Source: Bermanella sp. WJH001
GTDB taxonomy: Bacteria > Pseudomonadota > Gammaproteobacteria > Pseudomonadales > Oceanobacteraceae
Length of the DNA: 32,000 bases
Direction: 5' to 3'
Assembly: GCF_030070105.2 (NCBI RefSeq)
Contig: NZ_CP194951.1
Span: forward strand, 537,981 to 569,980
Shown here piece after piece: positions 2,040-20,748 of this stretch; the stretch's first letter is position 1, and each line of letters opens with the position of its first letter. A program made the position numbers and the translations under genes. The notes beneath the pieces are model-generated. The model was not told where the DNA came from, did not search any database, and was given only the letters and a program-made list of their open reading frames with translations.

Positions 2040-2161
2040 TATTAATTTTCAAACTATGGGGCAGTAGTGCATGTGTGACAACTTTTACAGTCGCTGCCAT
2101 GAAACAGGTGGGAGTGTGCTTGCACGGGACAAGCCAATTAGAAACACGGAACTAAAGGCAT

Positions 2162-2202
2162 AAAAAAACCGTTTACACATAAAGCGTAAACGGTTTGATT
2201 TT
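2162..2202. terminator. Bidirectional rho-independent terminator
   Basis: A 9-bp stem ACCGTTTAC/GTAAACGGT with a 9-nt loop is flanked by A7 on the left and TTGATTTT on the right. On the minus strand the hairpin is followed by TTTTTTT, so it closes the thiolase transcript after the heptamer array. Confidence 0.7.
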
Positions 2203-2203
2203 G

Positions 2204-2315
2204 TCTAACGTCTAACGTCTAACGTCTAACGTCTAACGTCTAACGTCTAACGTCTAACGTCTAACGTCTAACGTCTAACGTCTAACGTCTAACGTCTAAC
2301 GTCTAACGTCTAACG
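2204..2315. repeat. Perfect heptanucleotide tandem array (TCTAACG)x16
   Basis: I counted 16 uninterrupted identical copies (112 nt). The array ends 1 nt before the thiolase stop codon (2317-2319) and reads CGUUAGA x16 in the thiolase 3' UTR. Confidence 0.98.
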
Positions 2316-2316
2316 A

Positions 2317-3504
2317 TTAAATCAATTCAATCGCCATAGCTGTCGCTTCACCGCCACCAATACAAAGTGCCGCAACCCCTTTGGTTTTGCCTTTTACTTT
2401 CAGTGCGTTCATTAGGGTTACAATTAAACGTGAACCCGTTGAACCCACTGGGTGGCCTTGTGCACAAGCACCACCAAAAATGTTCACAGTTTCAGGGTCT
2501 AAACCTAGATCCAAGATTGGCATCATGGCAACCATGGCAAACGCTTCGTTGATCTCAAATAAATCAACATCGTTTTTAGTCCAACCTGTTTTAGCAAATA
2601 AGTTTTCAATGGCGCCAACAGGAGCAATGGTGAACTCACTAGGGTGTTGTGATTGTGTGGCGTGACCCACAATACGCGCAAGAGGCTTAAGGCCACGTGC
2701 AGCCGCTTCGCTTTCGCTCATTAATAACAGTGCAGACGCACCGTCAGAAATGGATGACGCGTTAGCAGCAGTAATGGTGCCGTCTTTTTTAAATGCTGGG
2801 CGAAGCGTTGGGATTTTTTCAATGTTCGCATTAAAAGGCTGCTCGTCATGCTCAACAACGGTTTCACCACGACGATTGGTAACCGTCACAGGTACGATTT
2901 CATCTTTTAGTAAACCCGCTTCAATAGCGGCTTTTGCACGGCTTAAAGATTGAATGGCGTAGTTATCCATGTCTTCACGGCTGTAGCCTTTTTTATCAGC
3001 AACGTCTTGCGCAAAGCTGCCCATTAAGCGACCGGTTTCAGCGTCTTCTAGGCCATCTAAAAACATGTGGTCCATTGCTTGATCCGCATGGCCCATACGG
3101 TAACCTTTACGTGCGTTTGGCAAAATATAAGGCGCGTTAGACATGCTCTCCATACCGCCCGCGATCATCACTGTATTCGTACCAGCCTTGATTAGATCGT
3201 GTGCAAACATAGTGGCTTTCATACCTGAGCCACACAATTTGTTGATAGTGGTCGCACCGGTGAAATCAGGTAAACCTGCTTTACGCATGGCCTGACGAGC
3301 AGGGCCTTGTTTTAAGCCAGCAGGTAATACGTTACCCATGATCACTTCTTGAACATCTTCTGGTTTTAAACCAGCGCGCTCAACCACCTCTTTAATAACA
3401 ATGGCACCCAGATCAGTGGCAGAAACCTCAGAAAGGCTACCCTGAAAACCACCCATAGGTGTACGCACACCACTTACGATTACAACAGAATCTTGATTAG
3501 ACAT
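2317..3504 (-). CDS. Acetyl-CoA C-acetyltransferase / thiolase II
   Basis: Thiolase signatures are present: NKLCGSGMKA (nucleophilic Cys), GHPVGSTGSR, and CIGGGEATAMAIE near the C-terminus. I moved the start to the ATG at 3504 (MSNQDSVVIVSGVRTPMGGF), which has GAGG 6 nt upstream. The track ORF start at 3597 adds 31 unrelated residues. Confidence 0.95.
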   Translation of the reverse strand: MSNQDSVVIVSGVRTPMGGFQGSLSEVSATDLGAIVIKEVVERAGLKPEDVQEVIMGNVLPAGLKQGPARQAMRKAGLPDFTGATTINKLCGSGMKATMFAHDLIKAGTNTVMIAGGMESMSNAPYILPNARKGYRMGHADQAMDHMFLDGLEDAETGRLMGSFAQDVADKKGYSREDMDNYAIQSLSRAKAAIEAGLLKDEIVPVTVTNRRGETVVEHDEQPFNANIEKIPTLRPAFKKDGTITAANASSISDGASALLLMSESEAAARGLKPLARIVGHATQSQHPSEFTIAPVGAIENLFAKTGWTKNDVDLFEINEAFAMVAMMPILDLGLDPETVNIFGGACAQGHPVGSTGSRLIVTLMNALKVKGKTKGVAALCIGGGEATAMAIELI

Positions 3505-3784
3505 AACAAACCTCATACTGAAACAGGGCACACCCTGGGAAGACCCACTTAAGCGAGCCAAGGAATAAAGGGCGCAAATTGTAGCAAGCTTCGCCAAAAG
3601 CCACCATGGTCAGCTTACTTGAGTGAAGCCGTGTTTGAATATTGTACTTAGGCCACAAAATTAACCTTTTTTGACCGTAAATGTATGAATTGGAAGCATA
3701 TTTACCTTGCTGAGCGCTCAAAAAGACTTCATATTGGCTGCACTTAGTGTAATCACTCTAAAAGTAGAACAGATGTACCGTGTT

Positions 3785-18528: not shown

Positions 18529-18648
18529 TGATTCACTCGCGGGGGCGAGTTAATAGCAGGTTATGTTTCATTTCTAAACGGTTTAGAGTATGTCGGGCAT
18601 GGCCCGACACAAGCAGTTGTCGGTGGTCAGTGCCCACCCTACAAACTA

Positions 18649-18676
18649 TCTAACATCTAACATCTAACATCTAACA
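18649..18676. repeat. Heptanucleotide tandem array (TCTAACA)x4
   Basis: Four perfect copies end 8 nt before the TonB-dependent receptor stop codon (18685-18687). The unit differs from the 2204-2315 unit only at the last base. Confidence 0.95.
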
Positions 18677-18684
18677 CGTCACGA

Positions 18685-20748
18685 TCAAAATACCAGTTTG
18701 GTACCCACTGAGAATATGGTCGGCAGTGATGTCACGTCTTCGGCCTCGGTATAGTCTTTGTTATAACTAATGTCACTTACGTTGGCGCGATTATATAAAT
18801 TGATGATTTCAAAATATAAGGTGCTGCGCCCTGATAAATCGTGATCAATACGGAAGTCTAAGCGATGATAAGCCGACAGACGTTGTGAGTTTGGTTTGCC
18901 TTCGATTGGGTCGTAAATGTAAGGGTCTGAATTACAACCGGCTTCGATGGTGCTGGAGTATTGTGGGTTACCGTTGCCATCTAGGCCACAACTATAAAAC
19001 GGCGTTGCACCGGTTATGGGTGTGACTAAGCTGCCACTTTGATAGCGCCATTTAAAGCCATACGAGGTTTTCTCGTTCTTTTGATAATTAGCCACTAGGT
19101 TAACAATCCAAGGGCGGTCAAGCTCGTAATCAATTTCTAGTCCAGAGTCTTCATTTTCACGCTTGGTTTTACTGTAGGCCACACTTAACCAGCCATACCA
19201 TTTATCGGTTAGATTTTTATTAATCAGTAATTCAAGACCATAGGCTGTGCCGTTAGCATTATTTAAATACGGTGGCGTGGTGTTTTTGGTGTTAGCAGCC
19301 ACAAGGTTATCAATGTCTTTGTAATATACTTCTAGCTTGGTGCTTAATGAGTCATCAATTTGGTGCTCAAAACCCACTACATAGTGGTTAGCAATGGGTT
19401 GTTTTAGGTCTGGGTTACCCAACTCTTTTGCAATAAAACGAAACTCACGAATAAACTGGCTATGACGACCAACGGCGGCAGTTAATGTCCAGCTGTCATT
19501 CAAGCTATAACGGCTGGAAATTCTAGGTTGTAGAAGTTGCTCTTCGTTAAAGTCGTTGTAGCTGTTACCTAAACCAAGGGTTACTTCTAGGTCTGGTGTC
19601 GCTAACCAGTCATAGGCCACAAATGTATAGAGCCCGTTGATGGTGAGTGAGTCTTCATTATCAAATACTTCACCCAGTGAAGCAGGTGGGCACTCATCGC
19701 CTACTTCATCATTACAAGGGGAGTACAGGCCGCTGGCGGTGTATTCAATTTCTGTGTTGCTCAGGTCAAAACCATAACGAAACGTGTCGCCATTATTAAG
19801 AGGCGTAAAGTAATAGTTTTTTAAGCGGTATTCGTAGTTGATGGCATCTAACTCAAATAATGTGCCCACAGAAAAACTCACGTCTTCTTCTTTACGACTT
19901 AAAGACAAGATAGTGGCGGTGCCACCATCCAAAACGGTATCAAACACGATGCCTTGGTTGTGATAATAGGTGTCGGCGTCTAGCCCGCCAGCAAGCGCCG
20001 GCTCACGAGCAAGGTCATCGGACTCAGGACCAAAGTCGATGCCCACGCTGTCGTTTGCACCGGTGGCAATAAAACGCAAATTTGAAACCGGGCTCATGCG
20101 CCATTGATATTTAAATTGATAGTCGCTGTTTTTAGGCACCTCAGTGAAGGTCAGCTCATCTTCATCCACAAAGTTTTCTACATAAAACTCTAATAAACTG
20201 CGGCGATAGGAAAAATAAAAGGCGCTGTCATCGCTTACGGCCCCTTCAACTAAACCACCTGCCCGTAAAAAACTTAAGTCTAATGTAGTGCGAATAGGTT
20301 CTTGGTATGGATCGCGCAGTTTTGTCGCTAAAACAGCACCAATGGCATTGCTGTATTCAGGCCCCCAAGCGCCTGCTTTAAGACTGAAGTCTTCGATGAT
20401 GTTGTCGTTATAGGTGCTTCCGCCGTCGTTATGGAAAACATAACCAACAGGCAAAAAGTCAGTGATATAAATATTATCGTTAGGGCTTGAGCCCCTTACA
20501 GCAGGAACACTAAATGGGCCGAATCCACCCAGTACAACACCAGGAAGGGCTTCTACGGCTTTTAAGGGGTCGTTGCCAGCACCTGGCACTTTTAATAGTT
20601 TCTCAGTGCTGATTTGCGGACCTTTGAGTTCGCTGCCACTGACATTAATGGTAGAAAGCTCAGCCACATCCTCATCAGAGGTTTGTGCATGGCTAAACAC
20701 ACTTAGAGCACTTAAAGACAATGCTGTGAGTAAAATAGAGCGATTCAT
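18685..20748 (-). CDS. TonB-dependent outer-membrane receptor
   Basis: The signal peptide is MNRSILLTALSLSALSVFSHA. A plug-type motif (NDPLKAVEALPGV) is present. A long beta-rich barrel region ends with a C-terminal aromatic residue (GTKLVF). Confidence 0.9.
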   Translation of the reverse strand: MNRSILLTALSLSALSVFSHAQTSDEDVAELSTINVSGSELKGPQISTEKLLKVPGAGNDPLKAVEALPGVVLGGFGPFSVPAVRGSSPNDNIYITDFLPVGYVFHNDGGSTYNDNIIEDFSLKAGAWGPEYSNAIGAVLATKLRDPYQEPIRTTLDLSFLRAGGLVEGAVSDDSAFYFSYRRSLLEFYVENFVDEDELTFTEVPKNSDYQFKYQWRMSPVSNLRFIATGANDSVGIDFGPESDDLAREPALAGGLDADTYYHNQGIVFDTVLDGGTATILSLSRKEEDVSFSVGTLFELDAINYEYRLKNYYFTPLNNGDTFRYGFDLSNTEIEYTASGLYSPCNDEVGDECPPASLGEVFDNEDSLTINGLYTFVAYDWLATPDLEVTLGLGNSYNDFNEEQLLQPRISSRYSLNDSWTLTAAVGRHSQFIREFRFIAKELGNPDLKQPIANHYVVGFEHQIDDSLSTKLEVYYKDIDNLVAANTKNTTPPYLNNANGTAYGLELLINKNLTDKWYGWLSVAYSKTKRENEDSGLEIDYELDRPWIVNLVANYQKNEKTSYGFKWRYQSGSLVTPITGATPFYSCGLDGNGNPQYSSTIEAGCNSDPYIYDPIEGKPNSQRLSAYHRLDFRIDHDLSGRSTLYFEIINLYNRANVSDISYNKDYTEAEDVTSLPTIFSVGTKLVF

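Follow-up and report, generated by a model that had tools for sequence, protein, structure and literature searches.

A polar family of RGAYG-core heptamer arrays at the 3' ends of head-on genes in Bermanella sp. WJH001 and its relatives

The thiolase locus

We analyzed a 32,000 nt stretch of the genome of Bermanella sp. WJH001 (hereafter the window; 0.538-0.570 Mb of a 3.64 Mb chromosome, with a second contig of 80 kb and 42.7% G+C), in which a perfect heptamer array directly follows the stop codon of a thiolase gene. This array was compared with all perfect heptamer arrays of the same genome and with arrays in related genomes. Below, G000 denotes this genome and other G numbers denote the compared genomes. 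The features at the locus are as follows.

2204..2315, minus strand: perfect heptamer array, (TCTAACG)16 on the plus strand and (CGTTAGA)16 on the thiolase sense strand
2317..3597, minus strand: open reading frame (ORF) of an acetyl-CoA C-acetyltransferase (thiolase), based on Pfam and NCBIfam
2156..2196, minus strand: predicted intrinsic terminator of the thiolase gene, a 13-pair stem-loop (2196-2166) followed by a T run

Direct reading of positions 2204-2315 gave 16 uninterrupted, perfect TCTAACG units, and Tandem Repeats Finder reported period 7, 16.1 copies, 100% matches, 0 indels, and a score of 226 at 2203-2315, bearing out the sixteen mutation-free copies counted in the initial annotation of this DNA. 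Written in the frame of the family described below, the unit is AGACGTT (RGAYGNN). The ORF matched Pfam Thiolase_N and Thiolase_C up to residue 424 of 426 and was assigned to acetyl-CoA C-acetyltransferase by NCBIfam; the protein shares 94% identity with its counterpart in a Bermanella sp. metagenome-assembled genome (MAG). Alignments with Pfam and with most relatives begin only at residues 32-38, so the true start probably lies about 30 codons inside the listed ORF. According to the GC-skew replichore assignment, the gene is on the lagging strand and is therefore transcribed head-on to replication.

A single base (2316) separates the TAA stop (2317-2319) from the array, and 7 nt separate the other end of the array from the terminator stem, confirming the annotated placement between stop codon and terminator. 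As the array fills this spacer, it is expected from its position to be present in the 3' untranslated region (UTR) as (CGUUAGA)16, which supports the transcript form given earlier.

Just past the terminator, positions 1883-2070 of the window (plus strand) hold a dispersed non-coding repeat of about 190 nt. At least eight more copies occur in G000 with 71-89% identity (for example, near 2.275, 1.650, 1.494, and 3.318 Mb), and copies are also present in G002, G006, and G015. The repeat contains a CGTCACTCC... hairpin head resembling the repetitive extragenic palindrome (REP)-like elements found 3' of arrays in other genomes.

Census of heptamer runs in the genome

All perfect period-7 runs in G000 were collected and sorted by copy number and unit, with the following counts.

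2 to 2.9 copies: 10 runs with an RGAYG core (5 per strand), 229 runs with other units
3 or more copies: 29 runs with an RGAYG core, 4 runs with other units

Core units thus accounted for 29 of the 33 runs of at least three copies but for only 10 of the 239 two-copy runs, and these ten were divided 5 + 5 between the strands without strand bias. We conclude that growth past two copies is unit-specific and not generic. A chance origin of the thiolase array was excluded, because almost none of the two-copy runs with other units reaches three copies. About 25 distinct loci in G000 carry perfect heptamer arrays, nearly all of which share the core RGAYGNN on the sense strand, with units such as AGACGTT, AGATGTT, AGACGTG, AGATGTC, GGATGTC, AGACGGG, AGACGCT, and AGATGAG. 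Three of the four non-core runs of at least three copies are near-variants or adjoin a family array. Copy numbers range from 3 to 28 in G000 and reach about 50 in other genomes of the order.

The initial annotation had proposed counting such arrays genome-wide relative to stop codons, and this count returned the family of about 25 loci beside stop codons. Its explanation of the perfect copies, expansion by slipped-strand mispairing, holds in that the array is a variable, slippage-type repeat, but the process is not a generic one, being limited to the RGAYG core and to one orientation.

Two arrays lie back to back 3' of ychF (G000 C1 3,014,175-3,014,241), (TTAATGT)4.6 followed by (TAGACGC)5.1, and in the former AATG replaces GAYG. 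The GGAGACG and GAGATGA arrays adjoin, always at the same junction, a conserved stretch of about 35 nt (CAGCTAAAGTTTTCG ... GTCAA), after which comes a GTCATTCCGG-type hairpin element; this junction was found in G000 C1 near 103.7 kb and 385.9 kb and at our loci L111, L114, L125-L127, and L129.

Two proposals based on the unit itself were rejected. The arrays do not generally insure translational stop in all frames: TTAGACG gives TAG in three frames, but GGAGACG, CGGATGT, and CAGATGT contain no stop. Upon sequence inspection, primase sites were also discarded, as CTG/CTA on the lagging template is absent from the GGAGACG and CGGATGT units.

Orientation of the arrays

Judged from cumulative GC skew, replication starts near 0 and terminates near 1.82 Mb; the window is at 0.54 Mb. 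RGAYG was located on the lagging strand in 27 of the 29 runs, corresponding to 23 of 25 loci (binomial p about 2e-5). Single heptamers in G000 showed no lagging-strand skew, and AGATG alone was commoner on the leading strand. Polarity relative to genes was determined from crude ORF calls and oriented flanks. Twenty-two arrays have their start between -4 and about +10 nt relative to a stop codon, which frequently lies within the first unit, and RGAYG was on the sense strand in every one (22/22). The gene 5' of these stop-abutting arrays was head-on in 21 of 22 cases, compared with 41% expected (p about 1e-7), a null taken from the operon-end-like 3' ends, of which 426 are head-on and 602 co-directional. 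With RGAYG in sense and the gene head-on, the RGAYG strand is the lagging strand; the lone co-directional case, at 2.8948 Mb, retained its orientation relative to the gene. That nearly all arrays follow the stops of genes read against the direction of replication points to transcription-replication collisions as their likely origin, and the replication polarity, which the initial annotation did not note, is the most informative feature of the family.

The array-bearing genes, including leuS, valS, acnB, rsgA, ychF, gatB, maf, an hldE-like gene, an acrB-like gene, the thiolase gene, and others, are genuine housekeeping genes with Pfam domains extending to the last residues, and Pfam comparison of those in G000 revealed no common functional theme. 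The arrays are located in the short stretch from stop to terminator and not in the far longer untranscribed spacer that follows, and a terminator or REP-like hairpin is usually found 4-13 nt past them.

An asymmetry of replication alone could be proposed from these data, since the replication polarity is more general than the polarity to transcription. Arrays would then expand only with the G/T-rich strand as the nascent lagging strand, either because the Okazaki fragment forms a hairpin, as has been suggested for CTG repeats, or because the lagging-strand polymerase stalls at the terminator or REP hairpin of the single-stranded template, and selection would let them survive where they are harmless. 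The hairpins close behind most arrays agree with this proposal, as does the predicted stability of RGAYG single-stranded DNA (ssDNA), which exceeded that of the complementary strand for 17 of 24 unit types and fell below it for none. However, this ssDNA asymmetry is small and was rejected as an explanation, since it is nil for several common units; the abundant TTAGATG, GTGAGAT, and GAGATGA gave 0 kcal/mol on both strands. The hairpin-stall version was also rejected, as array-side hairpins are no stronger than those at ordinary 3' ends (-6.7 versus -6.1 kcal/mol), and long arrays without a hairpin exist (for example, 20.9 copies at 3.0586 Mb). Moreover, replication alone predicts arrays in untranscribed spacers and beyond co-directional terminators, where none were seen, and leaves both the stop-adjacent location and the RGAYG specificity unexplained. 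We therefore consider it an unlikely cause of the family.

Orthologous loci within the genus

The 3' ends of the thiolase genes in the genus were compared, with the following results.

G000: 16 x TTAGACG
Bermanella MAG FR12gam3 (G033): 10 x TTAGACG
G006: 7 x CTAGACG, the unit being changed in every copy
G002: two degenerate units
Five other species: thiolase stop followed directly by the orthologous terminator, no array

The orthologous terminator was present in relatives with and without the array. As the same orthologous site carries 16, 10, 7, two-unit, or 0 copies, the array arose in situ, varies in length, and has been homogenized; judged from these sequences, it is a variable number tandem repeat (VNTR) under concerted evolution, in agreement with the length variability predicted initially. 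The arrays of 10 and 7 copies at the same site in independent assemblies also dispose of an assembly artefact, a possibility that had been raised at the outset.

The genus was searched with the pattern (RGAYGNN)x5, using the reversed pattern as the control. Arrays were detected in 8 of 23 genomes, whereas the control gave 0-1 hits. Nearly all of 34 arrays taken from seven other genomes of the genus begin -19 to +36 nt from a stop codon, and most begin -5 to +11 nt from it. Where a G000 orthologue was available, 30 of 31 arrays were at head-on genes. At least 12 of the relatives' array loci have no array in the G000 orthologue; arrays persist at the same locus across species at gatB, the GATase gene, the thiolase gene, and a TonB-like gene. 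The last of these lies in the window together with a second family array.

18648..18676, minus strand: second family array, (TGTTAGA)4.1 on the sense strand, unit AGATGTT
18685..20748, minus strand: head-on, TonB-like ORF of 687 aa, conserved in relatives
18590..18647, minus strand: REP-like element made up of a pair of short, GC-rich hairpins; its head, read on the sense strand, is of the GTAG type

This array begins 8 nt past the TGA stop of the ORF and is followed by the REP-like double hairpin. The similarity of the 687 aa ORF to TonB-dependent receptors is weak only, far under the curated cut-offs. Three species (G033, G013, and G016) have three different units at the locus, TTAGATG, GGACGCT, and CGGATGT, and the core is retained in all of them. 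GTAG-headed REP-like double hairpins with a near-constant junction were observed 3' of TTAGATG-type arrays at several loci and in several species (window 18590-18647, G000 C1 near 3.0489 Mb, L118, L121, and L138).

Heptamer arrays were also found at contig ends in drafts (G002 C432, G013 C93 and C280, G143 C17, G016 C3, and G048 C6 and C8). The arrays break short-read assemblies, so the array counts from MAGs are lower bounds. They are thus a recurrent cause of contig breaks in such assemblies, and, as VNTR markers, they can be used directly to type strains of Bermanella-like bacteria.

Arrays that persist at the same loci across species could be explained by selection for a cis-element: an RGAYG platform in 7 nt register for a conserved protein that binds RNA or lagging ssDNA, or a G.U-rich hairpin that buffers the mRNA 3' end. 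Such an element might be kept in head-on 3' UTRs because, for example, it parks RNA polymerase, recruits a conflict-resolving factor, or stabilizes the transcript. HutP, which binds UAG-N4 repeats, is a precedent for heptad-spaced RNA sites. Positions G2, A3, and G5 are fixed, while R1, Y4, N6, and N7 differ from locus to locus and among species, and do so even within a single set of orthologous sites; in the imperfect arrays of G048, a genome from another family of the order, the two free bases differ in every unit and AGAYG is retained. The thiolase 3' UTR RNA was predicted to form a long imperfect hairpin via the GACGUU quasi-palindrome (-71.8 kcal/mol, z = -8.4), with the terminator hairpin preserved in the fold of the whole UTR. 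However, predicted self-folding is not common to all family units, many unit types having no predicted structure as RNA or DNA, and comparison with Rfam 15 gave no known RNA family (best matches 17-27 bits versus gathering scores of 43-99). The copy number, 3 to about 50, is not conserved, orthologous genes of close relatives lack the array, and the genes that carry it share no functional theme. The intact core is itself favored by the search pattern, the analysis yielded no candidate binding protein, and a function in the mRNA alone would leave the restriction to head-on genes unexplained. Selection for such an element is accordingly a doubtful explanation, and the regulatory, stability, or chaperone-binding role suggested in the initial annotation was not supported in this analysis.

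Arrays in other families of the order

In an order-wide sample of 251 genomes, arrays were detected in 26 genomes from 19 of 125 genera, whereas the reversed-pattern control gave essentially three arrays in two genomes. Outside the genus, the strand was assigned by local 20 kb GC skew. Nine genomes of other families (GC 44-68%) contributed 20 arrays, 18 of which had RGAYG on the lagging strand; for G048 the figure was 13 of 14, and the two sets together gave 31 of 34. The composition of the arrays cannot have produced the lagging call, because the leading strand usually has the G excess. Many of these arrays lie, in sense, 3' of the stop codon of a long ORF, but others do not.

Half of the G048 arrays (7 of 14; loci L164-L169 and L173) are followed, at 5-6 nt, by one REP-like element (ATCGTCACTCCAGCG..CGCTGGAGTCCAGC, with a ATCGTCAC head), and the CGTC head of this element complements the GACG core of the arrays. 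An enzymatic origin could account for this arrangement, with a Y1/HUH ssDNA transposase, either a REP-associated tyrosine transposase (RAYT) or an IS200/IS605-like enzyme, acting on the lagging-strand template beside the hairpin and cutting and rejoining at RGAYG, so that heptamers are added or removed. Y1/HUH transposases are ssDNA- and lagging-strand-specific. The constant spacing in G048 fits this proposal, as do the fixed junctions within the genus (GGAGACG arrays to one conserved element and TTAGATG arrays to the GTAG-headed REP) and the presence of Y1_Tnp genes in 7 of 8 array-bearing genus genomes. In the order, however, Y1_Tnp was found in 19 of 26 array-bearing and 124 of 225 array-less genomes, so neither genus nor order provided a convincing association, and the presence of the transposase was rejected as a correlate. 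Y1_Tnp was not found in the complete or near-complete array-bearing genomes G087, G020, G230, G160, and G127, and about half of the G000 arrays, including that of the thiolase gene, precede ordinary terminators orthologous to those of array-less relatives. The REP-like elements of G000 also lack strong replication polarity. Taken together, these results make an enzymatic origin highly improbable.

A replication polarity of REP elements was likewise rejected, as REP-like heads (GTAGGATGGGTTA, 40 copies) have no strong replication bias in G000. Terminators after many arrays contain ACAAGCGGT, which resembles the Pasteurellaceae uptake sequence; a role as a DNA uptake sequence was rejected, since only 74 occurrences were counted versus about 28 expected.

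Comparison with known repeats

The thiolase array belongs to a known class, the bacterial heptamer long simple sequence repeats (LSSRs), and its unusual feature is the reproducible polarity to replication and transcription. As summarized in PMC4679880, Mrazek (2007) found heptamers to be the commonest long simple sequence repeat (SSR) class in many free-living bacteria and attributed them to polymerase slippage, not function; the initial description of such arrays as unusual in bacterial chromosomes was therefore overstated (see also PMC4692102). Like LSSR5-11, the arrays described here are perfect tandem heptamers that are mostly intergenic and length-variable (Mrazek 2007 via PMC4679880); they are longer than expected by chance and differ in copy number at the same locus between species, as is characteristic of LSSR5-11 and VNTRs. 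In contrast to LSSR5-11, expansion is limited to one core and one orientation, a polarity not reported in that survey as it is summarized there.

The GGGAATC repeats of Xanthomonas and the GGGGAYT repeats of Nostoc (of the short tandemly repeated repetitive, STRR, type) are also genome-wide heptamer families with a G-rich strand, transcribed and copy-variable (PMC4692102), and they are concentrated, in sense, no more than 50 bp from stop codons (Rehm et al. 2015, PMC4692102). These repeats contain G-tracts, form G-quadruplexes, prefer four units, and, according to the authors, show no leading- or lagging-strand preference (PMC4692102). In contrast, the Bermanella units have no G-tracts, reach 3-28 copies in G000, and lie about 90% on the lagging strand. 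A G-quadruplex heptamer was therefore rejected, as TTAGACG and TTAGATG lack a G-tract and 23 of 25 loci are lagging-oriented. The TAACTGA repeats of marine Beggiatoaceae, Cyanobacteria, and Bacteroidetes resemble the arrays in having one preferred unit, an intergenic location, gene orientation, and a patchy phylogenetic distribution (MacGregor 2015, PMC4679880). They are located just upstream of start codons, usually in 2-6 copies, and were read as translational control sites (PMC4679880), whereas the arrays described here abut stop codons at 21 of 25 loci; replication polarity was not examined for TAACTGA. Membership in the TAACTGA family was rejected on the basis of unit and location.

Phase-variable contingency loci of host-adapted pathogens are similarly perfect, hypermutable SSRs made by slippage. 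The thiolase array, however, lies outside the ORF and the promoter, 1 nt past the TAA and 7 nt before the terminator stem, where it cannot shift a reading frame or promoter spacing, and the genes concerned are housekeeping genes; this identity was rejected. REP elements, bacterial interspersed mosaic elements (BIMEs), and miniature inverted-repeat transposable elements (MITEs) were rejected because the array is a direct repeat and its neighbor at the thiolase gene is an orthologous terminator, not a REP-like hairpin. A clustered regularly interspaced short palindromic repeat (CRISPR) identity was also rejected.

Orientation-dependent instability of disease-type repeats was reportedly described by Kang and Wells in 1995. 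The instability of these repeats (CTG/CAG, GAA) depends on the lagging strand, transcription, and RNA-DNA hybrids (reviewed in PMC6672053 and PMC10710837), and the orientation effect was absent in RNase H mutants in a yeast GAA system. These are experimental trinucleotide systems, whereas the arrays constitute a natural, genome-wide heptamer footprint. Head-on conflicts are also known to raise indels (PMC5909440). We found no description in the literature of lagging or head-on polarity of bacterial heptamer repeats, or of these units, although coverage was incomplete and this result is not proof of novelty.

Proposed mechanism

We favor, with a probability of roughly 0.5, replication slippage that is specific to unit and orientation and takes place in the transcribed spacer of head-on genes, where ribosomes are absent; the cause would be RNA polymerase pausing or R-loops that conflict with the replisome. 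Past the stop codon, RNA polymerase would lack a trailing ribosome, and the nascent RNA would be naked. The consensus elemental pause is g-11 G-10 t-3 g-2 Y-1 G+1 (PMC6062546, PMC11077087), and since -10 equals -3 modulo 7, heptamers in tandem would place G2, Y4, and G5 of every unit at G-10, Y-1, and G+1. The sense RNA, which is G-rich, C-poor, and mostly purine-rich, would favor RNA-DNA hybrids. In a head-on gene the transcribed strand would be the lagging-strand template, the track of the replicative helicase, and a slowed polymerase or an R-loop on it would meet the replisome head-on. A stalled fork could then realign out of register within the repeat, by which 7 nt units would be gained or lost; more units would lead to more stalling, and the arrays would grow and remain perfect. 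The array would thus be a mutational by-product that alters the length of the thiolase 3' UTR, with a probably near-neutral effect on expression.

This conflict model fits four facts: the arrays occupy transcribed but untranslated bases, RGAYG is in sense, the gene is head-on, and only the RGAYG core expands. The median codon adaptation of array-bearing head-on genes was also higher than that of other head-on operon ends (0.590 versus 0.566; one-sided p = 0.006), with the thiolase gene at the 93rd and acnB at the 99th percentile, which is consistent with a role for transcription. Loss of RNase HI was rejected as an explanation, since RNase HI is present in all genomes compared.

Several points weigh against the model. 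The match to the pause consensus is weak evidence, since about one-fifth (20%) of random heptamers have a rotation that matches G.YG; moreover, the consensus does not account for the conserved A3, and the unit has G at -3, where T is preferred. Although RNA polymerase and the replisome are universal, arrays occur in only 8 of 23 genomes of the genus and in about 10% of those of the order. In G000, three arrays of lagging orientation (near 1.096, 2.657, and 3.046 Mb) are upstream of co-directional genes and are not in 3' UTRs, and several arrays in distant genomes adjoin no long ORF; the polarity to replication is more universal than sense transcription. The difference in codon adaptation is modest, with a background set of crude ORF calls, and for this organism we infer the mechanism from sequence.

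In a broader and more tentative form, to which we give less than even odds, (RGAYGNN)n may be the footprint of head-on conflict, marking self-amplifying, pause- or R-loop-prone sites in the 3' UTRs of lagging-strand genes in many gammaproteobacterial lineages, or else a set of sites for a novel conserved factor that reads RGAYG at heptad spacing in lagging ssDNA or RNA. Either origin would amount to sequence-specific, doubly polar microsatellite genesis, which we have not found described for bacteria. Heptamers outnumber every other class of long simple repeat in free-living bacteria; in the present case, a single motif class makes up nearly all arrays, with about 90% polarity to replication and transcription that recurs across independent loci, species, and families. 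If head-on conflicts are the cause, the arrays would be genomic recorders of collisions between RNA polymerase and the replisome and would offer a tractable natural model for orientation-dependent repeat expansion.

Other repeats

A cluster of 9 nt tandem repeats was observed at G000 C1 1,037,448-1,039,039, where AACTGGATC and its variants are arranged in several blocks, each of 3-10 copies; the cluster presumably belongs to a gene for a repeat protein.
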